A stretch of DNA of 53,667 bases. Origin: Clostridia bacterium (GTDB lineage: Bacteria; Bacillota; Clostridia; Oscillospirales; RGIG8002). The notes under the pieces are model-generated. The model was not told the origin of the DNA and ran no database searches. It saw only the letters and a program-made list of their open reading frames with translations. The stretch covers positions 1-53,667 of the forward strand of contig JAFRVI010000022.1 in assembly GCA_017438525.1 (NCBI GenBank), read 5' to 3'. The position numbers and the translations under genes are program-made. Of this stretch, positions 3,648-48,523 are shown piece by piece (position 1 is the first letter of the stretch; every line of letters starts with the position of its first letter).

Positions 3648-4661
3648 TCAAAGAATTATATGTACTTCGCCGAAGCGGAACTCCCTGTATTCGCCGTTGG
3701 ACGCGACGATCAGACTGCCGGTGTCGGAAATGTCGATCGCGGTGCCGCGGAAGGACTCCTTGACGGTGACGACCTCGACCTCCTGGCCGATGACGGCTGA
3801 AAGGTCGCGCGCTTCGTCGACTATGTAGCCGCGCTGCCATTCGACAGCGTCGGACTGCCCGAACTTCACCTGCGCGCTGCCGAAGTAGGCGGCGTAGAAG
3901 TGCTCGATGAGCGACGCCGCGAGGACGTTCGGCTCCGGCGCCTTGCCGGTAAGCTCCTCTATCGAGCCGGCGATATTGCGGATGGACGCGTCGTAGCCGC
4001 CGGGAGGCGTTACGGTGTTTATCCCGACGCCGACTATGCAGTACGCGGGGCAGCCCGCCTCCATATTCATCGTCAGCTCGGTGAGTATGCCGCCGATCTT
4101 TTTGCCGCCGGAGACTATGTCGTTAGTCCACTTGATCGCGGGCTTCAGCGAAGTCGAAGCGGCGATCGCCTTGCAGAACGCGACTCCCGCAAGGGTGGTC
4201 ACGAAGGAGACGTCGCTCGCCTCGAGCGCGGGACGGATGAGCATGCTCATGTAGACGCCGCAGTCGCGTTCACTCTCGAAGCTCTTGCCCTGCCTGCCTC
4301 TGCCGGCGGTCTGCTCGCGCGCGATGACGACGGTGCCGGAGGGCGCTCCCTCGTCCGCGAGCGCGCGGAGCACGGCGTTGGTCGAGCCGGTCTTGTCGAC
4401 AAGCTTGATATCGACCCCCGCGAATTCGCGCGGCAGGTTCGCCTTTATGCCCTCCGCGTCGATAAGGTCGGGGGAGAAGTTGAGGCAATAGCCCTTGTTC
4501 GTGACGGAATAGATCATATTCCCTTCTTTTTTAAGCTGCAGGACGGCCTTCCAGACGCTGCAGCGGGTAACTCCCAGCTGCTGCGCTATCTTTTCGCCGG
4601 AGACGTATTCTCCGCCCGCCTCTTTGAGCAGTTTCAGCACTTTTTGCGACGTCGACGACAT
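3648..4661 (-). CDS. birA: Bifunctional biotin-[acetyl-CoA-carboxylase] ligase / biotin operon repressor
   Basis: N-terminal HTH (EKIAQQLGVTRCSVWKAV), the GRGRQGKSF biotin-binding loop, and a C-terminal SH3-like tail. I place the start at the ATG at 4661, which has GGGGG upstream. Confidence 0.9.
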   Translation of the reverse strand: MSSTSQKVLKLLKEAGGEYVSGEKIAQQLGVTRCSVWKAVLQLKKEGNMIYSVTNKGYCLNFSPDLIDAEGIKANLPREFAGVDIKLVDKTGSTNAVLRALADEGAPSGTVVIAREQTAGRGRQGKSFESERDCGVYMSMLIRPALEASDVSFVTTLAGVAFCKAIAASTSLKPAIKWTNDIVSGGKKIGGILTELTMNMEAGCPAYCIVGVGINTVTPPGGYDASIRNIAGSIEELTGKAPEPNVLAASLIEHFYAAYFGSAQVKFGQSDAVEWQRGYIVDEARDLSAVIGQEVEVVTVKESFRGTAIDISDTGSLIVASNGEYREFRFGEVHIIL

Positions 4662-8632: not shown

Positions 8633-8680
8633 ACGTCCGTTATTACCTTTTATTTAATTGAATAAACCGCAAAATACCAC

Positions 8681-8719: not shown

Positions 8720-9069
8720 GGGGGCGCACCGGTTTCGACAGGGATTCGGAACCCGTATAAGCGAGCAGTGCTGCGGACGCACTTTAATACCCGCAAAAAA
8801 CAATAAACGCGAATAACGAATTTGCGATCGCTGCCTAACTAAAGGCAGCCGTCCGCCGGGAGAGTACCGCGGCTTCCGAACGGGCGTCATCGAGCGGTGC
8901 ACGTGAACGCGCAAAGCTTTGAGCGCGTCATGAAAAATGAAGCTACCCGACTCCGCGGCCTGCCGGACCGGCGGCGGACGAAGGGAATCTTTTAAATAGC
9001 CGGCTACGCTCGTAGAAAGTGCGGCGGATGGGTTTTTGGACAGGAGTTCGACTCTCCTCGCCTCCACCA
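8720..9069 (+). ncRNA. ssrA: tmRNA (transfer-messenger RNA)
   Basis: 5' GGGGGCGCACCGGTTTCGACAGGG and 3' GGAGTTCGACTCTCCTCGCCTCCACCA form the tRNA-Ala-like domain. The probable tag reading frame is GCG AAT AAC GAA TTT GCG ATC GCT GCC TAA (8809-8838, ANNEFAIAA*), with the stop in a hairpin loop (gctgcc-taactaaa-ggcagc). Length is 350 nt. Confidence 0.9.
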
Positions 9070-9074
9070 ATAAT

Positions 9075-9100
9075 AAAAGCACCCGTAGGGGTGCTTTTAT
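9075..9100 (+). terminator. ssrA terminator hairpin, part of a longer palindrome at 9064-9108 that includes the CCACCA end
   Basis: gcaccc-gta-ggggtgc stem followed by TTTTATTATT. The palindrome ccaccaataataaaagcaccc / ggggtgcttttattattggtgg extends it. Confidence 0.75.
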
Positions 9101-9107
9101 TATTGGT

Positions 9108-9290
9108 GGAAATGAAGACGCCCTTGCGGGCTGATGAAGGAATGAAGACGCTTCGCTAATGAAGAAATGAAAAATGAAGAAACAAACGTTGCCGGCGTCT
9201 TCGCTTCATTAGACGCTATGCGCCGACTTCATTAGGCGCCGCGCGCCGTCTTCATTAGGCGGCCTTGCCGCCGATTTCATTTTCTTCTTA
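9108..9290. repeat. Mirror-organised array of ATGAAG / CTAATGAAG cores (forward, then reverse) interleaved with GC-rich mini-palindromes
   Basis: ATGAAG starts at 9112, 9134, 9142, 9159 and 9174, with the variant ATGAAA at 9167. CTTCAT starts at 9204, 9227 and 9250, each as CTTCATTAG. TTTCAT starts at 9275. The 10-mer AATGAAGACG is at 9111 and 9141, and its reverse complement is at 9247. Confidence 0.65.
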
Positions 9291-9295
9291 GAGGA

Positions 9296-9324
9296 TTGAA
9301 AAATTCACACTTTTCTTGTATAAT
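9296..9324 (+). promoter_or_regulatory. Promoter candidate for the islet genes
   Basis: TTGAAA at 9296-9301, a 17-nt spacer, and TATAAT at 9319-9324. Confidence 0.55.
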
Positions 9325-9364
9325 GAAAAAAGAAAGCCGATAAATCGGGATTTATGGGGGCAAT

Positions 9365-10012
9365 ATGATAACCGAAGAACATAATCATTTATTTTTTGCG
9401 TTCGATGAAATAGATAAGGACATTTCGGCGATGATAATACAAATTGCAGAGAATATGTACGATAGGTTGATTTCCCAATTTGAATTACCGGATTCAAAAG
9501 AAAAATATACGTTAACTATTTGTCCGGATATTAAGACTTTTATGGAGCAGTCCGGCAAGGCGGAGGAAACATATCAGCCTTGGATGGTGGGAAACGCAAA
9601 TCGTACAAAACGCTCTTTGTGCATACTTTCACCGAGGATCGTCAGTGACAGAAGCCTTGAAGATATGCTGTGCGTTGTGAAGCACGAGATAACGCACATC
9701 GCACTGAACGCGTTAAATCCAAAGGATCCCGATGATATGTCAATGTGCCTTTCTGAGGGAATAGCGGTATATATGGCTGAGCAGATATACCCAAACCGAT
9801 TGGATATAAATAACTTTCCCAAGGTGAAAGAACTTGATGATGAGAAGTTCTTTTATGAACACGACGGATATAATTATTCAGGCGTATACATAGGTTTCTT
9901 GATTAGAAAGTACGGCACGAAAGTATTTAGTAATATTTATGCCGAGACGGAATGCTTTGACAACTATCTTTATGACGGTTATGAAATTGATGCTATAAAG
10001 TCATTTATATAG
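9365..10012 (+). CDS. Putative zinc metallopeptidase-like protein (HExxH)
   Basis: VVKHEITHIALN carries an HExxH motif, with a downstream Glu (LSEGIAVY) as a possible third ligand. The gene is AT-rich and has a GGGGG RBS. I recognise no closer family. Confidence 0.55.
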   Translation: MITEEHNHLFFAFDEIDKDISAMIIQIAENMYDRLISQFELPDSKEKYTLTICPDIKTFMEQSGKAEETYQPWMVGNANRTKRSLCILSPRIVSDRSLEDMLCVVKHEITHIALNALNPKDPDDMSMCLSEGIAVYMAEQIYPNRLDINNFPKVKELDDEKFFYEHDGYNYSGVYIGFLIRKYGTKVFSNIYAETECFDNYLYDGYEIDAIKSFI

Positions 10013-10138
10013 GAACAGACCGGCAGACAACTTCCGGCTTGTTGAGGCAAATCGGAACGGAGTTAAAAGAAGACAAGAAAACGTCCCTTGTCCTATATTT
10101 ATCGATTTTAAGTTACCTGACGGAGGCAGTGCTGCAGT

Positions 10139-10642
10139 ATGGAATTGAGGTTGGAAATACCTAATCAGACACACGAGCAAGAATATGCTCACGTGATGGA
10201 TAAATGGGAGACAATGGAAGAGTGGATTCAGCCAGAGCTGATGCGGCGGGGAAAAACTCCTTATAATAAGTGGCTGGAATATTGCGAAGATGATCGTACA
10301 AAGGCATCCATGCTGTCTACCCACATACCCGCAACCTTGTATTTCCTGGTGAACGAAAAGCAGGAAATACTCGGCGGTATCGTCATCAACCACTCCGACA
10401 CGAACCGAGGACATCTTCATGCCGGTATCGTCCCGTGGCACAGGGGAAAGGGCTACGGAACGACCATGACGACCCTTGCTTTAAAAGAATGTCAGAAAAT
10501 GGGGATCAGTAAAGTTCACATATGCCCAAACAGTAAAAACAAGGCTGCTATACAGGTAATTCTGAATAACGGCGGTTATCTGTTGGATGAATTCACGGAA
10601 GAGGGACATATGATTGAACGCTACGAGATATTCCCTTTATAA
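10139..10642 (+). CDS. GNAT-family N-acetyltransferase
   Basis: WHRGKGYGTTMTTLALKECQKMGISKV matches the acetyl-CoA binding motif A (R/Q-x-x-G-x-G/A). The beta-strand pattern and size are typical. The gene is AT-rich. Confidence 0.8.
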   Translation: MELRLEIPNQTHEQEYAHVMDKWETMEEWIQPELMRRGKTPYNKWLEYCEDDRTKASMLSTHIPATLYFLVNEKQEILGGIVINHSDTNRGHLHAGIVPWHRGKGYGTTMTTLALKECQKMGISKVHICPNSKNKAAIQVILNNGGYLLDEFTEEGHMIERYEIFPL

Positions 10643-10760
10643 AGAAGTTTTGGCATTCTACGAGGCAGTCGGGTTTACCATATTCAGAAGATATATGGAG
10701 ATGACTTCATTTCAGGTTTGTCAAGCTGCATGGTGTGTACCTTTTGGGAGTACTTACACA

Positions 10761-10826
10761 ATAAAAAACACCCCTATGGGTGCTTTTTTATTGGTGGGAA
10801 AACGGCGAGGAGAGTCGAAACGAGCT
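10761..10826 (-). repeat. Inverted, partly degenerate copy of the ssrA 3' end plus terminator hairpin (att-like)
   Basis: The reverse complement of 10804-10819 equals tmRNA 9047-9062 (ttcgactctcctcgcc, 16/16). Next come CCCACCA and a diverged copy of the terminator hairpin (caccc 10769-10773 / gggtg 10778-10782) with its A/T flanks. Confidence 0.6.
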
Positions 10827-10962
10827 CCGAAGGCGCGGAGCGGCAGCGACATTGGCTTCGGCAGCAACGCTCCGGCGGAGCGTTGCGAAAGCGAGAAGAG
10901 ACCTAATCAACCACCTGACACGCGGTGAGCGGGCAAATACTGTTGATTTTACTCAATAATAG

Positions 10963-10993
10963 CACGGCAGGGCTTTTGGAAAGCCCTGCCGTG
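10963..10993. terminator. Hairpin terminator (11-bp stem) downstream of the C11 peptidase gene / end of the islet
   Basis: cacggcagggc (10963-10973) / gccctgccgtg (10983-10993), followed by attctttta. Confidence 0.65.
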
Positions 10994-11030
10994 ATTCTTT
11001 TATTACGATTCTTTAACTTAACGCCGCCGC

Positions 11031-18239: not shown

Positions 18240-18290
18240 ACAAGAAGACCGCGAAAAATACGCAAATAATATTTGAGAGGGGCCCGCAAT

Positions 18291-19043
18291 ATGGAGTACA
18301 AAGTACTTATTGCAGACGACTGCTTCGGCACCGAATCCGAAGCGGCGCGCATTCTCAAAGGGTATGGTATGCAGGCGGTTTTCTGCGGAAGGGACGGCAG
18401 AGAGGTAGTTAAAAAGACAGACGACCTGAAGCCGAACGCAGTTGTGATGAATTTGTCCATGCGGAGCATAGACGGACTCGGCGTGCTTTCGCTGATGAAG
18501 TCAAAGCCGGACGCTCCGCGCTTCGTCGCCGTTTATTCCGGAGACGACAGCGCTCCGGTCGAGGAGGCGATGGAGCTCGGAGCAGCGTACTGCGTCCCGC
18601 TGCCGATCGACCGTAATCTGCTCGCTTCAAAGCTTGACGAATTAAAGTTCAGAGCCGAGACCGCTTCGCTCAACGCCGCTCCGCCGAAGCCGAAGCGCGA
18701 CGTGGAGGCGGAGATAACGGAGCTGCTTCACACGCTGGCGGTGCCGGCGCACATAAAGGGCTATCAGTATCTGCGCGAGGCGATAATGCTCACCCTGCGC
18801 GATATGGATCTGATCAACTCGGTGACGAAAGAGCTTTATCCCATGGTCGCCAAACGCTTCGGGACCACGCCTTCGCGCGCCGAACGCGCGATAAGGCACG
18901 CGATAGAGGTCGCCTGGGACCGCGGCGACGTGGAGGTACTGAACGGCTTTTTCGGCTACACGATACGCTCCGACCGCGGCAAGCCGACGAACAGCGAATT
19001 CATCGCGCTCGTTGCTGACCGCCTGCGGCTGAAGGCGATGTAA
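18291..19043 (+). CDS. spo0A: Spo0A-family sporulation transcription factor with an atypical receiver domain
   Basis: The C-terminal domain is almost diagnostic: [15 protein letters not shown]...[30 protein letters not shown]....L...FGYT.....[18 protein letters not shown]. The N-terminal CheY-like fold begins KVLIADD. The start is placed at the ATG at 18291, after GAGAGGGG. Confidence 0.85.
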
Positions 19044-29437: not shown

Positions 29438-32062
29438 CTACGCGAGCTTCGCGGCGCAGCGCAGGATGCGCAGCGTATCGGAAACGGTCGCTTCGCCGTC
29501 GCCGTCCATGTCGGCGAGGCGCTTTTCGGAATCGTAGTATTCCTTCGGGTCGATAGCCATGCGGAGCGAGGCGAGCGCGTCGGTAACGGTGACTTCGCCG
29601 TCGCCGTCAACGTCGCCCTCCGGTCGCCGGACGGCGTCCTTCAGCTCCGGATACACCGTCGCCATCGCGTAGGCGATCCACGAGGAGTGCTCCTGGTTGC
29701 CGACGTCGGAGAACCTGTCCGGATACCACCAGCTCTCCGGGTACATATTGCTCGCCGGAGAGTTCATGAGCATGAACTCGGTCATTTCGTCGACGCGCGC
29801 GGTATCGCCGACCGCCGCGCTGAACATCAGCTCCCACGAATACCCCTTGCCGATGACGTGGTTGCCGTAGCGGCCGGTATCCATATAATAGCAGGCGTCG
29901 AGCATCGGGTATGCGCCGTAGCTGACAGAAGCGATCTCGCGGTACGCCGCGAAGGTATCCCTCATTATCCGCTCGTCCATGCCGTACCAGCCCGCCGCGA
30001 TCGGAGCGAGATTAACCCACGACATACCCTTGATGAATCTGTCGCCGTTCGCGATATCGATAAGCTCCGCGTAAACGCGTTTGCCGTTGACCTCGGTGAC
30101 GAGCGTTTCGTTGATCCCGCCGCGGATGCGCTCGGCGAGCGCGCTCCACTTCGCCGCTTCTTCGGCGTTGCCGAGCGCGGAGTCGAACTCCGCGAATTCG
30201 TGAAACACCTGCGAGGCGTAGGCGTTGGTTATCAGGTCGTAGCACTTCCACTTCCTTCCGTCGCGCGAGTGCTCGAGGAAGTCGTTGCGGATGAGATTCA
30301 GCCCGTCGTCTATGAAGCCGCCCTCGACGTAGGCGTTGACGTAACGCTTGATTATCGGATAGGACTGCGCGATGAACTCCACGTCCTCGGGCGTTTCCGG
30401 AGCCGCGTTCGCGTAGGCAATCCACGCGTGAGCAAGCGCGAGGACGGTATCCGTCTGCGCTTCGGTGCTCTCGAAGGTAACGCGCGTCTTGAACGCTTCG
30501 TAGGACGCTTCGCCGCTTATCGCGACGCCGTTGAGCTTCGTTATCAGGCCCTTATAGTTCTTGCGGCCGTACCACGTTATGCTGCCCTCCGGCGAATCCG
30601 GCGCGGAAAGCGTCAGCGTGTAGCTGCCGTTCCTGACCGGATCGAGCGGCAGGCCGAACTCGAAAACGACGTAGCCCTTAGCGGACGGCAGCTCCGACGC
30701 TTTCAGCTTTACCGTTCCGACGGTGAAACCGTCGCGCTTCAGCTCCGCGTTTATCATGCCGCGTGCGTTATCCTTGCGCGACATCCACACGCCGACGGAG
30801 GTTACGGTCGCGTCATCGCCGCTTATCTCCTGCGAGGCGTAAGCGCTCCCGCCGAGCTTTATAAGCGCCGAATACTGCCCCGGCGACGCGCCGGCGTTGT
30901 TGCCGTATTCGGTTTCTTTCAGGTCGGATATGACGTGGGTCGGGAAGCTGACGCCGAGGTGCCTGTAGACGCTCAGAACGTAGCGCAGCAGGCGGCGCGA
31001 AAGGTCGGTGTCGCCCTGATTCGTATGCATCAGCGACTGGATCGACGTGTCGCGGACGTACATGCAGTCGTAAAGCCCAGTCACCGACGTCGGAGAATAG
31101 CCGGACGACGTGATGCGGTTTTTCATCGAGGCGTATGAGTTGGCGTAAAGCTCACGGAGCAGCACGGGCTTCAGCAGCAGCGTCAGCGTTCTGATCTGCT
31201 CCTTCTTTTGCGCCTCGGTGCCGCTTTCGAGCGCGGCTTTCGCCGCGATAAGCTCCGCCGCGTATTCGCCGTCGGCGTCGGTCTCCTCGAGCTTGGATAT
31301 CAGCTTGTCGAGCCCTCTGCCGGACGGCGGCTCTTTGTAAAGCTTGAAGTCGGAAACGTAATAGGTCGCTCCGGCGTTTATCTTCTGATTATCGAAGATG
31401 ATGTCTATCGAATTGAGCTTTGCGAACTCTTCGCGGAGACCGCCCTGCTCCCACCAGACGTAGCCGCCGTGGAGCACGCTGAACTGCACCTTCACGTAGC
31501 CGTTCTCGTCCGGGAACAGCATCGCGGTGCGGAAGTACGGGCCGATGCCGTACTGATTGTAAATCGCCTGATGCTCCTCGTCGCCCTGATAGCCGTAAGG
31601 CCCTCCGCACGGCGAACGGCGCATTATAACAAATATCGCGTCTGTGTAGCCGTCGACGCGGAACATGAAGCCGTCGTATTCGCTCAGGTTCATGCCGCAG
31701 TTGAAGGTCTTTCCGCCGACGTCGGCGAGTCCGTCGTAGAACAGCTCGTCTTTGACGTGCATGTGGCGCGAGGTCGAGATCGCCTTGATACCGGTGGAGG
31801 TGACGTCGAGCCGCAGCGCGCGGGGGACTCCCTGCGAGGCGAGCTCGTCGGTGAAGTCCGCGGTGCGCGGATCGAAGCCGGTCATCAGCAGCTGCTGCAG
31901 CTCCGACTTATCGAACTGCTCGAACGCGGGCAGCGGCGTGAAATCGTAGCCCTCGTAGGCGTCGGGCATCTCCTCCGCCTTAACGTGAGTACGCGGCGCA
32001 GGCAGCGTCAGGCACCCGAGCGCGAAAAGGCATATGAGTATTATCGCGAGCGCAATTTTCAT
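29438..32062 (-). CDS. Secreted dockerin-bearing protein, probably an (alpha/alpha)6-barrel glycoside-hydrolase-like enzyme of unassigned family
   Basis: Signal peptide MKIALAIILICLFALGCLTLPA. The C-terminal type I dockerin has duplicated Ca-binding loops (GDVDGDGEVTVTDALASLR and DMDGDGEATVSDTLRILR). The central helical-repeat region has aromatic- and acid-rich motifs. Confidence 0.75.
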   Translation of the reverse strand: MKIALAIILICLFALGCLTLPAPRTHVKAEEMPDAYEGYDFTPLPAFEQFDKSELQQLLMTGFDPRTADFTDELASQGVPRALRLDVTSTGIKAISTSRHMHVKDELFYDGLADVGGKTFNCGMNLSEYDGFMFRVDGYTDAIFVIMRRSPCGGPYGYQGDEEHQAIYNQYGIGPYFRTAMLFPDENGYVKVQFSVLHGGYVWWEQGGLREEFAKLNSIDIIFDNQKINAGATYYVSDFKLYKEPPSGRGLDKLISKLEETDADGEYAAELIAAKAALESGTEAQKKEQIRTLTLLLKPVLLRELYANSYASMKNRITSSGYSPTSVTGLYDCMYVRDTSIQSLMHTNQGDTDLSRRLLRYVLSVYRHLGVSFPTHVISDLKETEYGNNAGASPGQYSALIKLGGSAYASQEISGDDATVTSVGVWMSRKDNARGMINAELKRDGFTVGTVKLKASELPSAKGYVVFEFGLPLDPVRNGSYTLTLSAPDSPEGSITWYGRKNYKGLITKLNGVAISGEASYEAFKTRVTFESTEAQTDTVLALAHAWIAYANAAPETPEDVEFIAQSYPIIKRYVNAYVEGGFIDDGLNLIRNDFLEHSRDGRKWKCYDLITNAYASQVFHEFAEFDSALGNAEEAAKWSALAERIRGGINETLVTEVNGKRVYAELIDIANGDRFIKGMSWVNLAPIAAGWYGMDERIMRDTFAAYREIASVSYGAYPMLDACYYMDTGRYGNHVIGKGYSWELMFSAAVGDTARVDEMTEFMLMNSPASNMYPESWWYPDRFSDVGNQEHSSWIAYAMATVYPELKDAVRRPEGDVDGDGEVTVTDALASLRMAIDPKEYYDSEKRLADMDGDGEATVSDTLRILRCAAKLA

Positions 32063-32099: not shown

Positions 32100-35000
32100 T
32101 CACTTCTTCGTCAGGCGCATAACGTAAAGTCCGGTCGCGGGATGGTTCATGCCGAACATAACGCGCTTGCCGGAGCAGAAGGAGGCTCTCTCCACCCAGC
32201 TTCCCGATCCGTCTGCGACGGTGACCGCTTCGAGCAGCGTTCCGTCGCTGCGGTAGGTGCGCACGGAGCCGTCGTAGGAGCAGGCGGCGAGCATACTGCC
32301 GTCCTTCGATACGTCGAAGTCGCGGACGAGCGAACCGTAGCCGCCCATCAGCGAATAAAGTCTGCCGGTAGAGACGGTGAAGATGCGGAGATCTCCCGAT
32401 TCGGAGGCGCAGACCACGCGTCTGCCGCCGTCAAGGAAGCGCACCTTCGTCACCGGCGCGGTGCGGGTGTTTTTCATCTTGTTTACGCGGGCGCCGGACG
32501 CGGCGTCCCAAACGATGACATTTCCGTTCTCGTCGGAGGTGACGAGGCGGGAGCCGTCAGCGGTCAGGTCTATGCCTCTGACGGCGGACGTGTGTCCGGT
32601 CAGAGTGTGGCGGAGCGCGAAGCTCGATGCGTCGTAAATCTGCACTTTGGAGTTGCCGAGCGCGAGCGCGACTGTGCTGCCCGCCGCGGCGATGGCGCGG
32701 ATATCGCTCTCGAGGTCGACCTGTTTGACCTTGTTGCCGGAGGCGTCGAAGACGAACATGGCGCGGGAATAGCTCGACTGGTCGTCGTAGTTCCTGCCGC
32801 CGGCGACGACGTATTCGCCGTTGCCCGTGAAGGCGACGGCGTCGTGGTAGACGTGGTAGTTATCGACGTCCCACGCGATGAGGTCCTCGGTCTCGCAGAA
32901 GGTCAGCACGCCGTCGCGCGAGCCGGCGACAAGCATTTTGCCGTCCGGAGAGAAGGCGGCGCAGGTGTAAAGCTTGCCCTTGCCGTTCATCTCGCCGAGC
33001 AGCTCCGATTTTTTCGCGTTATAAAGCTTGATTGAGCCGCCTCTGCCGACGACGGCGGTGTATTTGCCGTCCGCGGAGGTGACTATCGCCTTGACGCGGT
33101 CGCTGCCGAGGTTGTGCACGGTCGCATTGCCGGCGTCGACGGAGATGTTCGCTGTCTGCGAAACCTCGCCGCTGCGCTTGTAGAAACGGACGTAGTCCAC
33201 GTAATAATACGACGTATCCGGCATACCGCTCGGCAGCTGATCGTTGCCGGGGCCGGAAACGGAGGTGTTCAGTATCAGGAAGTGCGGCTGCGCGCCGAAG
33301 CCCCAGCGCATGGAGTCGCTGTTGACGTTCAGCGTCATATAGAGCATACCGTCGACGAGTATCCTCACCTGTTCGGAATCCCATTCCGCGGAGTAAACGT
33401 GGTATTCGTCGCTGAGCAGCTTGTCGCGCGAGATCGGGAAGTTGTAGTTCTTCGACATATGGTAACCCTCGTCGCCGAACCAGTGGAGCGTTCCGTAAAG
33501 GTTATGCCCCTTGACTATGCCCTCCTCGGTGCTGTTCTCTGCGTCGACCCAGCCGTTTTCCATGATGTCTATCTCGCCGTCGTGCGGCCACATGCTCTCG
33601 GCGCCCATCATCCAGATCGCCGGCCAGATGTACGCGCCGCCCGGGACCTTCGCCCTGACGTCGACGCGGCCGAAGGACTGACCGTATTTGCCGGAGGTCT
33701 CGAGCGAGGCGCTGGTGGCGTGGTAGCCCTTGTATTCCTCGATCTTGCTCTTGATGACGAGGTTGCCGTTTTCGATATAGTGATTGTTCTCGCTGTCGCG
33801 GTAATATATGGGCTCGGTGTCGCCGCGCGTTTTGCCGTCGGCGGGAGTCCACATCGAACGGTCGAGCTTCTCGCCGTCGAATTCGTCCGCCTTGACGAGC
33901 TCCCACGCGCCGTAGTCGTACTCCGTCAGCTTCATGGAGCCGCCGGTGCCCTTCTTCAGCACCGCCTTAGCGCTCAGGGTCGCGAGCGAATAGGCGTCCG
34001 CGTAGGTTATCGCGAAGTTTCCGCCGCCGAGCGACCTGACGCCGAACTCCTGCTTGGCGTTCGTCATATCCGCCTCCTTCATGAAGAGGTCGAACTCGAC
34101 GTTGGTGGTCAGCGCGAGGCCGGTGCCCTTGTTGACGATGCGGTAGGCGCCGGAGGCGCATTTGTATATCTGCCACAGCTGCGTGTCGTCGCCGGCGTCC
34201 TGGGTGAAGGTCAGCGACTGGTTATCGTCGTGCATAACGAGCGTTTCCGCCCATTTGAGCTGGCGCTCGGTTATCGCGGGCCCGTATGTCAGCACGGTGC
34301 CGCGGGAATCGGTTATCTTATAGAACTTTTCGTTCGAAACTGATGAAGCCGTGTGGACGTAGACGCCGCCCTTCGCGGTCTCCAGCGTTTCGGCGTACGC
34401 CGCGAGGTTCGATACGTAGCATTCGCCGTCCGACGCGAAGGCGATCGAGTTTATCGAAGGCAGTACGTCGATGAGGTACGTCCCCTCCGCGCCCTTGAAG
34501 AAGTCGAACGAAACGCGCATATCCGACGCCTGCGCCGGAACGGGCAGGTCGGCGGCAAAGGCGGTCTCCCCCGCCTTAAGCGTTACGGTCAACCTTCCGG
34601 ACGGGGCGGCGGCTTCAAAGTGAAATGTCAGTCCGTCCGCGTTCGCGAGCGCGCCGCCGAAGGGGTCTCCGTCGGAGGTCACGCTGCCGGTGAACTTCAC
34701 CGCGTCGGCGGCGCCGTCCGGAGCGGCGGATCGCTCCGCGGAGGTGAACGCCGCGAGGCCGGGGATCGCAACGGACTCGAACGCGCCGTCCTTCAGCGCG
34801 GCGACGGCGCGGCCGATATCGGCGATGGAGTTCTCCATATCGGAGGACTTGCATTCGGGGTCGTCGTAGTGGCGCTTCGCGTTATCGACAGCGCCGGTCA
34901 GGTATTTTCTCGTCTGCTCGTCGGCGTTGCCGAAGATAAGCGGCTCCGCTTCCGAGATCTTCGCGGCGAGAGGCGCTTTGTCGTCGACCGGATTGACCTC

Positions 35001-35108
35001 TTCTTCAGAGTTCGGAGCGCTCGCGCTACCGCCGTTTTCCTTCGGCGAGCAGGCAGCGAACGCCAGGCACATTATCAGCGCGAGGAGCGCGGCTGTAAAT
35101 CTTCTCAT
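32100..35108 (-). CDS. Lipoprotein with a ricin-B/CBM13-like module, a GH16 catalytic domain and a C-terminal WD40 beta-propeller
   Basis: Lipobox LAFAACS. QLWQIYKCASGAYRIVNKGTGLAL (QxW-type lectin repeat). GH16 active site GEIDIMENGW. WD40 repeats include GHTSAVRGIDLTADGSRLVTSDENGNVIVWD. Confidence 0.85.
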   Translation of the reverse strand: MRRFTAALLALIMCLAFAACSPKENGGSASAPNSEEEVNPVDDKAPLAAKISEAEPLIFGNADEQTRKYLTGAVDNAKRHYDDPECKSSDMENSIADIGRAVAALKDGAFESVAIPGLAAFTSAERSAAPDGAADAVKFTGSVTSDGDPFGGALANADGLTFHFEAAAPSGRLTVTLKAGETAFAADLPVPAQASDMRVSFDFFKGAEGTYLIDVLPSINSIAFASDGECYVSNLAAYAETLETAKGGVYVHTASSVSNEKFYKITDSRGTVLTYGPAITERQLKWAETLVMHDDNQSLTFTQDAGDDTQLWQIYKCASGAYRIVNKGTGLALTTNVEFDLFMKEADMTNAKQEFGVRSLGGGNFAITYADAYSLATLSAKAVLKKGTGGSMKLTEYDYGAWELVKADEFDGEKLDRSMWTPADGKTRGDTEPIYYRDSENNHYIENGNLVIKSKIEEYKGYHATSASLETSGKYGQSFGRVDVRAKVPGGAYIWPAIWMMGAESMWPHDGEIDIMENGWVDAENSTEEGIVKGHNLYGTLHWFGDEGYHMSKNYNFPISRDKLLSDEYHVYSAEWDSEQVRILVDGMLYMTLNVNSDSMRWGFGAQPHFLILNTSVSGPGNDQLPSGMPDTSYYYVDYVRFYKRSGEVSQTANISVDAGNATVHNLGSDRVKAIVTSADGKYTAVVGRGGSIKLYNAKKSELLGEMNGKGKLYTCAAFSPDGKMLVAGSRDGVLTFCETEDLIAWDVDNYHVYHDAVAFTGNGEYVVAGGRNYDDQSSYSRAMFVFDASGNKVKQVDLESDIRAIAAAGSTVALALGNSKVQIYDASSFALRHTLTGHTSAVRGIDLTADGSRLVTSDENGNVIVWDAASGARVNKMKNTRTAPVTKVRFLDGGRRVVCASESGDLRIFTVSTGRLYSLMGGYGSLVRDFDVSKDGSMLAACSYDGSVRTYRSDGTLLEAVTVADGSGSWVERASFCSGKRVMFGMNHPATGLYVMRLTKK

Positions 35109-35121
35109 CTCGTTCTCCTTG

Positions 35122-37899
35122 TCAAATATTCCAGACGCAGTAGTCGGTATTCAGAATGCCCATCGCCGCGAACGGACGCGAGCCGTCCGCGGAGAAGGCG
35201 ATATCCATGACCCATCTGCCCTTGGGGTTGTCGGTGCGGAGCGCGGTCAGATAAGCTCCGTCGCCGTCGAACAGCTTCACGCTGCCGTCGTAGGACGAAA
35301 CGGCGATGCGCTTGCCGTCCGGCGAGAACTTCGCCTCGCTGACAAGCTCGGCGAAGCCGCCGAGCGTCGCGGACTGCGTTCCGGTCGCGGAGTCGAACAG
35401 GCGGGCGCAGTTATCCGCGCAGACAGCGAGCAGACTCGAGCCGTCCGGCGAGAAGCGCACGCGGCGCACGGAGGACGGGTTGACCTTGTTGGCGGCGCGC
35501 ACCTGCTTTTTCTTCAGATCGCAGAGGTATATCCTGCCCGCCTCGTCGGAGAAAGCGAGGGAACCGTCCGGCGCGAAGTCGACTCCGCGCATCGCGGCGC
35601 CGTCTTCGTTATCGAAGCGGAATACCTGCGTCAGCAGCGGCAGCTCGTAAACGCGCGCGCTGCCGTCCGAGCAGACGGCGGCGGCGAGTTTGCCGTCCGC
35701 GGAAACCGCGGCGTTTCTCACGTCGCTGCCGGTCGCGGCTTCGGAAATCAGCGCTCCGTCTACGCCCCAGAGGCGCAGGACGCGGCTTTCCTTCGCGTTC
35801 GGCCTGCCGCGCTCGATCGTGTCTCTGCCGCCGGCGAGGAAGGCCCTGCCGTCCGGCGTGAAGGCGGCGAACTCGTTGAAGGTGCCGGCGTCGTCGATGA
35901 CGAGCGGCGCCTTCGTGAAGTCGGCGCAGTCGTAGATGAATATTTCTCCGTCGCGGTTCGGCACGCACAGCTTGCTCCCGTCCGGAGTGAAGGTGATCGC
36001 CTCGACGGCGACCTCCGGCTCGCGCAGCGTGAAGAGCAGCCCGTCTTTATGCTGCCCGTAGACGAAGACTTCTCCGCCCTGCCCCGCGGCGGCGGCGTAT
36101 CTGCCGTCCGGAGAGGCGCAGACCTTGTTGAGCCATTCGCGCGCCGCGCCGTTGACGTAGTCGGGCGCTTTCGCGTCTTCGACCGGCTCGGCCGCGCAGG
36201 TCACTTCTCCGGCGCGCTTGCAGCAGCGCACCCAGTCGATATAATAGAGCGATTCGGCCGGCGTTTCGGGATACGCCTTCTCTTCGCCGGGTCCTCTGAC
36301 GGAGGTGTTGAGAATGAGGTAGTGCGGGTTGTCGCCGAAGCCCCATTTCTTGCCGTCGGAGTCGAGGTGCATCGCCATATAGAGCATATCGTCGGTGTAA
36401 AGGCGCAGGTGGTCGTATTCCCACTCCGCCGCGTAGGTGTGGTAGCGGTCGTTGAGATTCTCGTAATCCTTGAAGCAGAAGTCGACGCCCTTCTCCATGT
36501 GCCTGCTGACCTCGGTCGCCCAGTGGAGCGTACCGAAGAGCTTGGAGTCCAGCTCGCCGTGTTCGCCTCCGCCGACGAGCTCCATGACGTCGATCTCGCC
36601 CTGGTAGGGCCAGTTGCCGACGATGCCCATCGACCAGAACGCGGGCCATATCCACGCGCCGGTGGCGAGACGCGCGCGCATCTCCATCTTGCAGTAGGTA
36701 ACGCCGTAGAGTCCGCGCGTATCCATATACGCGCCGGTCTGCGGGATGCCGTCGTATCCGTCGTCGGAGGTGCGGATGACGAGGTTGCCGTCTTCCGTCC
36801 AAAAGTTCTCCTTGCGGTCGAGGAAACAGACCGGCTCGGTATCCGGCCTTATCTTTTTGTTATAGACGCCCCATACGCTCCTGTCGAGCTCCTCGCCGTC
36901 GAAGTCGTCGCGGAAGGTCTCCACCCATTCGTCCTCGGCGATCTCGAAGAGCGCCCAGACGCCGTCCTTGCAGTTCTCGCAGGTCAGGGGCCTGCCGCCC
37001 TCGCCTATTATCGAGAACTTGCCCGGCCCGGCGGGCAGCAGGTCGAAATCCTGCGACGGACAGTTCATATTGACGTCCGTCGGGAAGGGCTTGCCGCGCT
37101 CGTCGAGCTGGATATGATTGGCGTTGGATTTGTTGATAACGTGGTATTTGCCGTATTCGGTCTTATAGAGCTGCCACTCCTGCGTATAGTCGCGGGCGCG
37201 CTTCTCAAGCGCGAGGTGCTGTCCCTTGTCGGTGTGGATCAGCGACTGCTCCCAGCGCAGGTCGGTCTCCTTTATGCGCGGGACGAGCGCGAGGGCGCGT
37301 CCGGTCGCTATGTCGACAATCTTATAGAACCTGTCGTTGCGCGTTTCGGAAACGGGATCCTCGGAGTAAGGCGTGCGGAGATCCGGCTCCACTTGCTCGC
37401 TGAAGAAGCAGAGCGGCGTTACACGCACTTCGACGTCCTCGTCGGACTCGAGCGCGACGACGATGCGCTCCGCGCGCCTGACCGCGGGAACGAAAAGGTC
37501 GTAAGTCAGCCAAAACGTCGTCTTCTCCTGCGAAAGTCCGATGCCCTCGATATAGGAGAATCCGGCGTCGGAGCCGACGCCTACGGTCAGCGTCGCGTCG
37601 CCGCTTCTGCCGTCGTACTCGACCTCGAGCGCGATGCCGTCGCAGGGCGCGGCCTCACGCATCGGGAAGTCGGCGGACTTTCTGCCGCCGGCGGCGACGG
37701 TGATGATTTCAGGCAGCGCGCCTTCCGTCCGCTTCGTCTTCGCGGGGCGGACGCTGTTCACCGCGCGGTGAAGCTCGTTCAAAACGGCGCGGTCGCCGGA
37801 CGCTTTTTCGGCCTCCGCTATGCAGCGGCGCAGGTTCTTCCTGCCGCGTTCGGCTATGCCGGAGCAAAGCAGCGCCTTCTCTGTCGCAAATCGTTCCAT
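35122..37899 (-). CDS. Paralogue with the same ricin-like, GH16 and WD40 propeller architecture but no signal peptide
   Basis: QEWQLYKTEYGKYHVINK lectin-like repeat, GH16 motif GEIDVMELVGG, and C-terminal propeller repeats (FSPDGKRIAVSSYDGSVKLFD and others). A strong AAGGAG RBS lies 9 nt before the ATG at 37899, and no longer in-frame ORF exists in the track. Confidence 0.85.
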   Translation of the reverse strand: MERFATEKALLCSGIAERGRKNLRRCIAEAEKASGDRAVLNELHRAVNSVRPAKTKRTEGALPEIITVAAGGRKSADFPMREAAPCDGIALEVEYDGRSGDATLTVGVGSDAGFSYIEGIGLSQEKTTFWLTYDLFVPAVRRAERIVVALESDEDVEVRVTPLCFFSEQVEPDLRTPYSEDPVSETRNDRFYKIVDIATGRALALVPRIKETDLRWEQSLIHTDKGQHLALEKRARDYTQEWQLYKTEYGKYHVINKSNANHIQLDERGKPFPTDVNMNCPSQDFDLLPAGPGKFSIIGEGGRPLTCENCKDGVWALFEIAEDEWVETFRDDFDGEELDRSVWGVYNKKIRPDTEPVCFLDRKENFWTEDGNLVIRTSDDGYDGIPQTGAYMDTRGLYGVTYCKMEMRARLATGAWIWPAFWSMGIVGNWPYQGEIDVMELVGGGEHGELDSKLFGTLHWATEVSRHMEKGVDFCFKDYENLNDRYHTYAAEWEYDHLRLYTDDMLYMAMHLDSDGKKWGFGDNPHYLILNTSVRGPGEEKAYPETPAESLYYIDWVRCCKRAGEVTCAAEPVEDAKAPDYVNGAAREWLNKVCASPDGRYAAAAGQGGEVFVYGQHKDGLLFTLREPEVAVEAITFTPDGSKLCVPNRDGEIFIYDCADFTKAPLVIDDAGTFNEFAAFTPDGRAFLAGGRDTIERGRPNAKESRVLRLWGVDGALISEAATGSDVRNAAVSADGKLAAAVCSDGSARVYELPLLTQVFRFDNEDGAAMRGVDFAPDGSLAFSDEAGRIYLCDLKKKQVRAANKVNPSSVRRVRFSPDGSSLLAVCADNCARLFDSATGTQSATLGGFAELVSEAKFSPDGKRIAVSSYDGSVKLFDGDGAYLTALRTDNPKGRWVMDIAFSADGSRPFAAMGILNTDYCVWNI

Positions 37900-46834: not shown

Positions 46835-48523
46835 ATGAGAAAGCTCAAAGCGTTCATAGCCGTTCTGATTTGTGCCGCACTGCTGCCGGTTCTCCCCGTC
46901 GTTTCCTCCGCGGCGTATGACGGAAATATTTATATAAACAACATAGAAGAATGCGCCGCTTCGCTCGGTATCACGGAAGAACAGTTGGCGGAGCTCGTGG
47001 AATATTTTTACGATTCCACAGCCGTATGCCGCAGGACGATCGACATTTCGGAGTATAATATTTCAAACAACATCACAAACGCGAATATGCTGCGCGATTT
47101 CATCGCCGATAACCCGAAGGCGTTCCATGTAACCGGCATGCGCTATGCGGTCGCCGGCGGCAAAATCGTAAGTTTCGTCATTTCATACAAGACCGACATA
47201 AACGGATACCGCGAGCAGCTCGCGGAGTGCGACGCCGTCGCCGAACGGCTCACCGAGGGCATTACGCCCGATATGCCGGAGGCGCTGAAGGTACTGCTCG
47301 TTCACGACCGGCTGATAACCCACTGCCGCTATTCCGAAGACTACGACTACGAGAACGGCAGATACGCCGACGACGACTACAACGCCTACGGCGCGCTCGT
47401 GGGCGGCAAGGCGATATGCCAGGGTTACACGCTCGGGTTTTCGTACCTGCTGGACTACGTCGGTATAAGCAGCTACACCTGCGCTTCCGAAGCTCTCGTT
47501 CACGCCTGGAACATAGTTATCGTCGACGGCGAGAAATACCACGTCGACGTCACCTGGGACGATCCGCTTTTCGACATTCCCGGCAAGGTAGGACACTGGA
47601 ACCTGCTCTCGTCGAGCGACAAGCTCTACGCCTCCTACCCCACCGCCCACAGCGCGGACGACTACGACGTCTCCCCCGTTTCCGCGCTCTACGATAACCG
47701 CGCGTGGTTCGGCTCGCAGTCGCAGTTCTGCCTGCTTAACGGCGAGCTGTATTACATCGACAACAGCTCCGCGGCGCTCTGCGCCTACGACTTCGGCTCC
47801 GACGGCTCAATGTTCATACTCGACCTGTCCGACTACTCCTGGCCGGCGGGCCCGTATTCCGCGTGGAACGGCAACTACTCCCGCCTCGCCTGCGACGGCG
47901 AATACCTCTATTTCTCGTTGCCGGACGGCATATACCGCTACGACCCCGCCAGAGACCGCGTCGAAACGTTCTTCACGCCGGATATGTCCGGGCACGATTA
48001 CTTCTCCGTTTACGGCTTCACGATGGAGGACGGACTCCTGACCTGCCTCGCGGCCGCCACGCCGAACCTCCGCAACGAAACCGAAAAGGAATACTACACC
48101 TACCGTTACGCCGCTCCGGCCAACGCCGAACCGGTCGTCAGCGGAGTCGAACAGGGCGGCGTTTACGACGCGCCCGTCACGATAAGCTGGGACGTCGGCG
48201 AGGGAACGCTCGACGGCTCGCCCTTCGATAACGGCGGAACGGTCTCCGACCCCGGCGAGCACGTTCTCGCGGTCGTCAACGGCGGCAAGGCGGTCACGCT
48301 GACCTTCACGATAAACGCCGCGCAGCAGATCAAAGGCGACGTCGACGGCGACGGAGAGATCACCGTCGCGGACGCGCTTTCGGTGCTCCGCGTCGCCGCG
48401 AAGCTTGCGCCTTCGACGCCGGAAATGCTCGCTGTCGGCGATATCGACGGCGACGGTGAGATCACGGTAGCGGACGCGCTGTCCATCCTGCGCGTAGCCG
48501 CGAAGCTTGCGACGAGTTTGTAA
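46835..48523 (+). CDS. Secreted transglutaminase-like cysteine-protease-fold protein with a C-terminal dockerin
   Basis: Signal peptide. Transglutaminase core Cys/His/Asp context (GKAICQGYTLGFSYLL...HAWNIVIVDGEKYHVDVTWDD). The dockerin has two loops (GDVDGDGEITVADALSVLR and GDIDGDGEITVADALSILR). Confidence 0.8.
   Translation: MRKLKAFIAVLICAALLPVLPVVSSAAYDGNIYINNIEECAASLGITEEQLAELVEYFYDSTAVCRRTIDISEYNISNNITNANMLRDFIADNPKAFHVTGMRYAVAGGKIVSFVISYKTDINGYREQLAECDAVAERLTEGITPDMPEALKVLLVHDRLITHCRYSEDYDYENGRYADDDYNAYGALVGGKAICQGYTLGFSYLLDYVGISSYTCASEALVHAWNIVIVDGEKYHVDVTWDDPLFDIPGKVGHWNLLSSSDKLYASYPTAHSADDYDVSPVSALYDNRAWFGSQSQFCLLNGELYYIDNSSAALCAYDFGSDGSMFILDLSDYSWPAGPYSAWNGNYSRLACDGEYLYFSLPDGIYRYDPARDRVETFFTPDMSGHDYFSVYGFTMEDGLLTCLAAATPNLRNETEKEYYTYRYAAPANAEPVVSGVEQGGVYDAPVTISWDVGEGTLDGSPFDNGGTVSDPGEHVLAVVNGGKAVTLTFTINAAQQIKGDVDGDGEITVADALSVLRVAAKLAPSTPEMLAVGDIDGDGEITVADALSILRVAAKLATSL

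Follow-up and report, generated by a model that had tools for sequence, protein, structure and literature searches.

What is the regular array of short AT-rich words and GC-rich palindromes that lies directly behind the transfer-messenger RNA (tmRNA) gene ssrA of an uncultured Clostridia bacterium? The array occupies positions 9111-9281 of contig JAFRVI010000022.1, of which we analysed the whole available stretch (53.7 kb, 59% G+C, hereafter the window). A preliminary description had noted words built on ATGAAG followed by their mirrored complement, and had proposed either arm-type binding sites of a decayed tmRNA-targeting element or a family of structured intergenic elements. The second proposal is borne out at the scale of the community, the same core and largely the same sequence being present at seven other unlinked loci and highly repeated in rumen metagenomes. 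We consider that the array and the terminator preceding it form a somewhat diverged copy of a dispersed, non-coding, modular repeat of rumen Clostridia that is probably a non-autonomous mobile or recombinationally spread element, a reading to which we give a probability of about 55%. The element's anatomy, its spread in high copy number over many loci, the polymorphism of its units, the keeping of its hairpins, its association with transfer RNA (tRNA) and tmRNA ends, the lack of a recombinase close by and the scarcity of RNA from it are observed; its mobility, the type of enzyme acting on it and a benefit to the host are what we infer from them.

The array consists of two blocks in opposite orientation (coordinates are those of the forward strand). 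The left, conserved block (9111-9179) carries forward AATGAAG at 9111, 9141, 9158 and 9173 together with two core variants, TGATGAAG at 9132 (9132-9139) and AATGAAA at 9166 (9166-9172), and these are separated by a hairpin GCCC-TTGC-GGGC (9120-9131) and a linker ACGCTTCGCT (9148-9157). Orientation flips in the centre (9180-9203), where GGCGTCTTCG (9194-9203) is the complement of the left-end AATGAAGACGCC; an inverted repeat (9109-9122 / 9194-9207) joins the left end of the array to its centre. The right, variable block (9204-9281) contains 3.3 units of about 23 nt, each made of CTTCATTAG, a GC-rich hairpin and GT or GA, with cores at 9204, 9227 and 9250 and a decayed one, TTTCATT, at 9275; its hairpins lie at 9235-9247 and 9258-9272, with a weak one at 9214-9222. 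Tandem Repeats Finder returned the same period and copy number (23 nt, 3.3 copies, 9204-9281). The ends of the array are inversely repeated, AATGAAG(A/T)CG at one end and CG(T/A)CTTCATT at the other, and this sequence is also repeated sub-terminally. The words reported in the preliminary description were all recovered: ATGAAG forward at 9112, 9134, 9142, 9159 and 9174 and its variant ATGAAA at 9167; the three CTTCATTAG copies, spaced 23 and 23 bp, with no further occurrence in the 53.7 kb; TTTCAT at 9275; AATGAAGACG twice (9111 and 9141) and once as its complement (9247), with no others in the window; and CTAATGAAG, the complement of CTTCATTAG, at 9156 only, where it mirrors the three CTTCATTAG copies. 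The three palindromes (9120-9131, 9235-9247 and 9258-9272) are likewise as described. A single CUGAUGA, which is box C-like, lies at 9131-9137. The 13-mer ATGAAAAATGAAG is, as had been claimed, exactly identical at 8930 in the tmRNA gene and at 9167 in the array and is found nowhere else, but the exact identity is most likely a coincidence, because relatives keep this part of the tmRNA with other middle bases, as CATGAATAATGAAG and CATGAATCATGAAG. The wider tmRNA segment 8893-8946, which includes CATGAAAAATGAAG, carries tandem ATGAA like the array, most likely also by coincidence; very many abundant RNA contigs match this segment with 3-4 differences, at depths in the thousands.

The clustering of the array words is beyond chance. 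AATGAAG occurs 13 times in the window as compared to 4.7 +/- 2.2 times in shuffled sequences, none of 100 shuffles reached 13, and 7 of the 13 words are packed into 146 bp. The preliminary description had allowed that such cores might be equally dense throughout AT-rich DNA; this is not the case, because the adjacent AT-rich islet (9300-11000, 34-49% G+C) holds a single AATGAAG, and the word is thus not a by-product of base composition. A k-mer cluster scan of the window found only two arrays with AT-rich cores, the present one and a sister array at 2703-2954, which lies behind the terminator of a protein-coding gene. The shared grammar that had been proposed for the two was confirmed. The sister array has the core ATATCG/CGATAT instead, with five units on each side of the centre, and it belongs to a second repeated family: metagenome contigs pile up on it to a depth of 241 against 14-28, and some of them continue into other combinations of hairpin and ATATCG. 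At the window locus no contig of runs X3, X5 and X8 covers this sister array. At least two tag families therefore share one architecture. When 80 loci from other Clostridia and other bacteria were examined with a generic detector of hairpin arrays, nothing similar was returned, but the detector also missed the 9111-9281 array itself, which makes this a weak negative.

Copies at other loci were identified by scanning metagenome contigs for three CTTCATTA words spaced 11-21 nt apart, and the hits were filtered by the composition of their spacers. Most three-core matches were tandem repeats of no relation to the element, from AT-rich eukaryotes and giant viruses, which this filter removed. The scan led to the identification of the same architecture in seven unlinked contigs of rumen type (L219, L246, L255, L271, L275, L277 and L284). 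When aligned (alignment A1), the copies begin with a terminator of the form GAAAAAA-hairpin-TTTTTTC, followed by AATGAAG-TCGCCCC.TTGC.GGGGCT, by AATGAAG-ACGCTTCGCT, by AATGAAG-(A-AATGAAG)-ACGCTCC.TGC.GGAGCT and by AATTA...GGGGCGACTTCG, and they end with 3-4 units of CTTCATTAG, a variable hairpin and GT. The proximal block of about 95 nt is 92-93% identical among L275, L277 and L246, and the left block of the window is 71-79% identical to that of L271, L275, L277, L246 and L219. In the distal block the cores are invariant across copies and the hairpins differ. The neighbouring genes are unrelated between loci, encoding GmrSD, AraC, SIR2, a 23S-IVP protein, GNAT and hexapeptide acetyltransferases and housekeeping functions. 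Viral contigs scanned with the three-core pattern contained no array of the AATGAAG kind, and a 24-mer scan of them gave one degenerate copy, at 1490-1620 of L323. This contig, filed as viral, carries the terminator, AATTAAG, a hairpin GCACC/GGTGC and ATGAAAAAATGAAGACGCTTCGCTAATGAAG, about 650 nt from a tRNA-Met gene. Searches of plasmid and phage records gave no match to the element, and literature searches by concept and by sequence words found no description of it.

To estimate abundance, the window was compared with the Logan contigs of four DNA runs from rumen or gut, and the L275 copy likewise with four DNA runs. The summed depth over 9058-9245 was 75-476 in the four runs as compared to about 5-22 on the adjoining unique flanks, an excess of several-fold to about 25-fold. 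Many contigs share 9124-9171 and then diverge into other sequence made of hairpins and ATGAA. With the L275 copy, 24-110 contigs matched per DNA run; the unique flanks of L275 had a depth of 0 and the element a summed depth of up to about 1000 over its two best-conserved stretches. This peak for the L275 element is higher than what the conserved tmRNA 3' end sums to in the same run, which suggests that there is more than one copy per genome. Whole units also vary between strains at the window locus itself: run X3 lacks one 23-nt unit, X5 has an additional one, and in X1 other sequence takes the place of the centre. Most of the short-read contigs at this locus end inside or beside the element.

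Comparison of the copies indicates that pairing is kept while sequence changes. In 17 distal-block spacers from six copies the mean perfect stem is 3.8 as compared to 2.5 in shuffles, a value that exceeds all 2000 of them; the stems of these 17 units differ in sequence and have 2-6 perfect pairs, and only the flanking tag is constant. Two-sided changes were found at two places. The third hairpin of the conserved block is GCTCC/GGAGC in L271 and L277 and GCACC/GGTGC in L275 and L323, and, for the pair that brackets the proximal block, the other copies have AATGAAGTCGCCCC / GGGGCGACTT where the window has AATGAAGACGCC / GGCGTCTT (written for the outer pair, AAGTCGCC/GGCGACTT as against AAGACGCC/GGCGTCTT). 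Such changes could reflect selection on structure or intrastrand templated correction of quasi-palindromes. Predicted folds bring the whole element back on itself with a z of about -6 for both strands. Besides the hairpin units there is another type, (T/C)GAGCGAAGCGA(A/G)..., which is not a plain hairpin and recurs in L255, L271, L275, L277 and L284, and both this unit and the linker ACGCTTCGCT contain GCGAAGC. This heptamer forms an exceptionally stable DNA mini-hairpin, and its presence hints at an action on single-stranded DNA. Mismatches of the G-T and A-C type in the hairpins, which may tell the strand of action, gave too few informative cases, and these were split between the strands.

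All copies examined are intergenic and lie behind terminators, and in the five of them with a readable left flank this flank reads '...CCA'(T), an A-tract, a hairpin and a T-tract. The CCA belongs to the tmRNA in the window and to tRNA-Gln in L277, and the remaining three flanks are '...CTCCACCA' in L271, '...CCGGCACCA' in L246 and '...GGCGCGCCA' in L275. The flanks of L246 and L275 were not recognised as RNA genes by searches of the Rfam and ARAGORN type; relaxed ARAGORN settings produced many obvious false positives and one doubtful tRNA-like call ending at the CCA of L275. These two flanks look like bare 3' fragments starting near the T-loop. Two further tRNA 3' ends, on contigs of runs X8 (DNA) and X28 (RNA), abut a terminator of the L275 type directly. 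Because different tRNA 3' ends join the same terminator, the latter is in some copies part of the repeated unit, with the junction at the CCA. The conserved block faces the upstream terminator in 5 of 6 complete copies, and on the far side of the variable block, at least in the window, L271 and L275, comes a promoter-like site that belongs to the next gene; in the window this site is TTGAAA-17-TATAAT (9296-9324, forward strand), which forms the right limit of the intergenic space and lies outside the repeat. One copy departs from the common setting: L219 lies between convergent protein-coding genes, has no CCA end and lacks the first hairpin unit. L284 faces housekeeping genes. Nor is the element universal: many tmRNA genes that are at least 80% alike in their 3' part, from the same samples, have a different sequence after the CCA, with loose ends at 9069/9070. 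The preference for tRNA and tmRNA ends is the most unusual feature of the element, and it may point to a link to integrative elements.

The tmRNA gene of the window (8720-9069, forward strand, tag ANNEFAIAA) was identified with ARAGORN and matches Rfam RF00023 with 162 bits. An inverted-repeat search and minimum free energy folds place its terminator at 9063-9110, a perfect 22-bp inverted repeat (arms 9063-9084 and 9089-9110) with the loop GTAG, whose left arm takes in the tmRNA 3' end TCCACCA. The array starts one base past this stem and 42 nt past the tmRNA CCA. In alignment A1 the 22-bp stem stands where the other copies have GAAAAAA-hairpin-TTTTTTC, and its perfection suggests snap-back copying rather than slow evolution. 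The stem pairs TCCACCA with TGGTGGA, and in a precursor transcript it would sequester the 3' strand of the acceptor. A partial second copy of the same region is found beyond the array on the reverse strand (10764-10819), where TTTCGACTCTCCTCGCC-gtttt-CCCACCA-AATAAAAAAGCACCC-ATAG-GGGTG... was identified with blastn-short (16/16 and 32/35 matches); in it the final 17 nt of the tmRNA body are followed by an insertion of 5 nt, by CCCACCA and by a terminator nearly the same as the first. The ssrA 3' end and its terminator thus stand, in opposite orientations, on either side of the array and the islet (9047-9110 and 10764-10819). On the forward strand, 10764-10819 acts as a terminator for the islet genes (9365-10642, forward strand), which encode a putative metalloprotease with an HExxH motif (9365-10012) and a GNAT acetyltransferase (10139-10642). 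A lone core, AATGAAG(TC) in AATGAAGTC (10705-10711, reverse strand), lies 46 nt beyond the second terminator copy. It is possibly a remnant of a second array, of uncertain significance (its chance probability is estimated at about 0.01). Elsewhere, in a different strain or species, a 23S-IVP gene of the L271 type follows the array instead of the HExxH gene, and a loose contig end of run X5, at 9257, breaks directly after a core. Because ssrA 3' copies bracket this region and the downstream gene differs with a break at a core, integration or exchange has taken place at the site behind ssrA. A simple integrase insertion would not leave the ssrA fragment at 10764-10819 inverted.

The gene on the other side of ssrA encodes citramalate synthase (CimA), for which an exact-protein look-up gave no record. 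A genome scan with this protein returned only proteins of up to 54% identity from distant species. The contig of a closer relative, L081 (94% identical), stops about 470 nt past an extra open reading frame (ORF), before the expected position of the array, and those of L082 and L083, whose CimA is 75-76% identical, stop inside the tmRNA gene; none of the three served for a comparison of the region behind ssrA. The extra ORF of L081 (146 aa, 3738-4210) directly follows cimA, where the window has the tmRNA gene. The spacer between the citramalate synthase gene and ssrA (8633-8664) is variable as well, with 463 extra letters in run X3.

Taken together, these observations are consistent with the following mechanism. 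Units of about 21-28 nt (mostly 23-25) each offer a constant AT-rich tag, CTAATGAAGAC(G), beside a short GC-rich hairpin that varies in sequence and keeps its pairing, and the two blocks of units stand in opposite orientation. A protein encoded elsewhere would read the tag by sequence and the hairpin by shape; we propose such a reader because the tag is invariant across loci while the hairpin varies and keeps its structure. Judging from the differing G+C of the contigs, the tag is probably invariant across species too. Recognition of sequence together with hairpin shape is the logic of REP-associated and IS200/IS605 single-strand transposases and of integron integrases. The number of units would change by slippage or unequal exchange, and the mirrored blocks would let the element fold back on itself. 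Copies occupy the dead space from a terminator to the next promoter, preferentially behind tRNA or tmRNA CCA ends or their displaced 3' fragments.

Several points weigh against a mobile or recombinationally spread repeat. The 53.7-kb window holds one AATGAAG-type copy, and the multiplicity is seen across contigs of a community, not in one genome; moreover the tRNA-Met, tRNA-Thr and signal recognition particle (SRP) RNA genes of the window are without the element. No autonomous relative or cognate enzyme was found in the window, in the readable flanks or in plasmid and phage records, and the flanks of six copies show no consistent target-site duplication, the left flank being a T-tract and C in four and the right flanks differing. 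High identity across loci could equally reflect strong functional constraint, and the consistent orientation of the conserved block would also fit a host function. Finally, the search pattern demanded three perfect cores, which biases the sample of eight copies to well-kept ones.

Partner genes were also searched for. Pfam and NCBIfam scans of the about 45 main ORFs of the window revealed no integrase, excisionase, transposase, REP-associated tyrosine transposase (RAYT) or Nop-domain protein, and none of these was seen beside L219, L246 and L284 (3-8 kb readable) or L271 and L277 (about 1 kb). No Cas or toxin gene was found in the window or beside the other loci examined. At gathering and E-value thresholds, Rfam 15 gave no family matches in the window beyond the tmRNA, tRNA and SRP genes; the best sub-threshold match over the element is rsmX (27 as compared to 56 bits), and C/D small nucleolar RNA (snoRNA) models stay below 16 bits. 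Over 9108-9211 several C/D-box snoRNA models, archaeal and eukaryotic, score below threshold, which we put down to chance. As to read-through from ssrA into the array, which the preliminary description had raised, the tmRNA is abundant in four rumen metatranscriptomes and its contigs end at 9069, where adapter follows. The depth of RNA contigs is 0 over 9082-9450 except for traces below 9 at 9109-9189 in two runs. The element family as a whole is absent from three of the four metatranscriptomes and has a depth of 2-7 in the fourth, as compared to up to about 1000 in the DNA runs, and one RNA contig passes from a tRNA 3' end into the element. As contig depth is a poor measure of RNA and of expression, these data speak against an abundant stable RNA, not against all transcription. 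A lax scan gave 3 terminator-like hits as compared to 1.4 +/- 1.2 in shuffles, and the array units passing it are those at 9235-9247 and 9258-9272. The stem 9063-9110 qualifies as an intrinsic terminator; the tail of the array units is GUCUUCAUU, not a U-run.

How do other explanations account for the same observations? The first proposal of the preliminary description, in its present form, would make the terminator and array the attP or attL arm of islets that target tRNA and tmRNA genes, with cores that bind the N-terminal domain of an integrase or an excisionase; the copies would be relics without integrase, or be mobilised in trans like cis-mobilizable elements (CIMEs). We regard this as unlikely, although part of it stands. 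The attachment link is upheld by the CCA ends in all five readable left flanks and by the second ssrA 3' end and terminator, which bound the islet with the lone core close by. Integrases that target tRNA genes cross over near the T-loop, where the L246 and L275 fragments seem to start. The gene after the array depends on the strain, with a break at a core (9257 in X5, and L271), and the neighbours are often accessory (GmrSD, GNATs and the 23S-IVP protein). What is not supported is the arm-site role: neither the window nor the readable flanks of five copies contain an integrase or excisionase, and 7-8 cores with palindromic spacers are unlike known arm sites. Near-identical arms behind different tRNAs would require the att core to have changed repeatedly, the orientation of the ssrA fragment is inverted instead of direct and the fragment carries a 5-nt insertion, L219 lies between protein-coding genes without a CCA and L284 faces housekeeping genes, and viral contigs contain no three-core array and one degenerate copy. 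A Tn7-like arrangement of two ends without a middle (site spacing of about 22 bp, homing to tRNA and tmRNA genes) was also considered and was dropped, as 7-12 nt are conserved per unit and there is no 5-bp duplication.

A host element acting in transcription or RNA would account for the position between terminator and next promoter, with the conserved block near the upstream terminator. In this explanation the array would be a bidirectional back-up terminator or insulator behind strong stable-RNA genes, or a structured 3' trailer for the protection or processing of transcripts, and its hairpins would act in RNA. The two-sided changes in the hairpins, the fold z of about -6, the two terminator-like units and the RNA contig that runs from a tRNA 3' end into the element would all fit. 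Yet tmRNA reads stop at 9069 and RNA over the element is near zero, the units have no U-tracts, terminator-like hits are no commoner than in shuffles, and near-identical sequence at unlinked loci, in some cases on contigs of quite different G+C, is left unexplained. This explanation is weakened, RNA contig depth being a poor measure, and we find it quite improbable. Far less probable still is an array of guide RNAs, be it TIGR-Tas, CRISPR-like or a type III antitoxin. The regular alternation of constant and variable parts, the one CUGAUGA and the sub-threshold C/D-box snoRNA hits speak for it; against it, the units are about 23 nt instead of about 36, the copies are single and lie behind tRNA genes, there is almost no RNA, and no Nop-domain, Cas or toxin gene is found in the window or at the other loci. 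Unit size, motif content and the lack of partner genes consequently led us to reject the TIGR-Tas, CRISPR and type III antitoxin readings. The modular repeat spread by mobility or recombination is the reading that we retain, and a bolder version of it is offered only tentatively, as rather unlikely: arrays of tag and hairpin may be an unrecognised class that homes to the DNA just past the CCA end of tRNA and tmRNA genes and their terminator, with an enzyme that reads the single-stranded tag beside any hairpin and with families defined by their tag (AATGAAG, ATATCG). In a related version they would be recombination landing pads that swap small accessory genes (GNATs, the HExxH protease, GmrSD), the cores serving as crossover points.

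The broad class to which the element belongs is probably that of REP/BIME, BOX and foldback elements of the MITE (miniature transposable element with inverted repeats) type. As in repetitive extragenic palindromes (REPs) and bacterial interspersed mosaic elements (BIMEs), the units are short, tagged, extragenic palindromes, which occur in both orientations after gene 3' ends, are highly repeated, fold into larger hairpins and form mosaics (PMC3733652, PMC3116915). The suspected agent in REPs is a single-strand transposase supplied in trans (PMC3733652, PMC3116915); the REP stem has an unpaired GTAG or CGTC tetranucleotide at its 5' foot (PMC3733652). The present element differs in that its tag is long (9-12 nt, CTAATGAAGAC) and conserved and its stems are short (3-6 perfect bp) and specific to the unit, whereas REP stems are conserved in the family. 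It has no GTAG or CGTC 5' of the stem; on the CTTCATT strand, CGTC is confined to the 3' side of the hairpin, and the other strand has GACG on the 5' side. Its units are oriented block-wise (++++ ----) instead of in alternating pairs, its hosts are rumen Clostridia and not Proteobacteria, it is tied to tRNA and tmRNA 3' ends, and there is no RAYT in the window. BOX elements of Streptococcus pneumoniae have the structure boxA-boxB(n)-boxC, with modules of 45-59 nt that are conserved in sequence. Compared by description only, they share with the element a conserved end with variable tandem modules, pairable ends, an intergenic and dispersed location and the lack of an own transposase; the element has instead modules of about 23 nt, variable hairpins and two mirrored blocks.

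The FB elements of Drosophila are of the foldback type, with inverted ends made of tandem short repeats. Among bacteria, a MITE of Porphyromonas gingivalis is reported to have an internal minisatellite (PMC4596501). The likeness consists in inverted ends of tandem short repeats, a varying number of units, small size, lack of coding capacity and many copies. Terminal inverted repeats, near-identical copies at unlinked loci and presence or absence among relatives are found here as in MITEs, but the element has no target-site duplication and its place of insertion is the terminator behind CCA ends. Arm-type sites belong to the attP and attL of tyrosine-integrase elements that target tRNA and tmRNA genes (lambda, L5 and P4-like islands). 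The array resembles them in having several 9-11-nt words in both orientations within about 200 bp of a tRNA or tmRNA 3' end and at the edge of variable genes, and differs from them in the lack of a nearby integrase, in its palindromic spacers, in the same arm being found behind different tRNAs and in its high copy number in the community. TIGR stem-loop arrays contain palindromes and are poorly conserved (bioRxiv 10.64898/2026.09.09.750476). The element has in common with TIGR-Tas arrays the short constant parts, which lead CRISPR finders to miss them, and palindromic stems within units (bioRxiv 10.64898/2026.09.09.750476); it differs in its units of 21-28 nt with one self-complementary variable part, in the single CUGAUGA and in having no adjacent Nop-domain gene. 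In all, the element is apparently undescribed, and its nearest described counterparts are tagged REPs (PMC3733652), whose defining features it fails to show.

The present family, abundant in uncultured rumen Clostridia, has an unusual logic, in which the hairpin is free and the single-stranded tag is fixed. Nearly all that is known of dispersed structured repeats (REP, BIME, BOX, Correia) comes, to our knowledge, from Proteobacteria and a small number of pathogens. In practical terms the element breaks short-read assemblies and marks the borders of variable gene content. A cognate enzyme, if it exists, would be a new system for recognising DNA by structure plus tag, and targeting of tRNA ends could account for the collection of small accessory islets at such sites although they lack an integrase.

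A few observations on the neighbourhood of the copies and on the host complete the analysis. Acetyltransferase genes lie near 4 of the 8 copies (10139-10642 in the window, 746-1261 in L271, 1493-2050 in L246 and 111-680 in L277). Three encode GNATs and one a hexapeptide-type enzyme, and they are not orthologous; their presence may be due to chance or may reflect a type of small cargo that collects at such sites. Elsewhere in the window, the regions 32100-37899 (reverse strand), 29438-32062 and 46835-48523 encode two adjacent and paralogous large proteins with a GH16 domain and WD40 beta-propeller repeats and two dockerin-bearing proteins, and Spo0A is encoded at 18273-19043. The GH16/WD40 and dockerin proteins and Spo0A point to a spore-forming rumen Clostridium of the cellulosome type.

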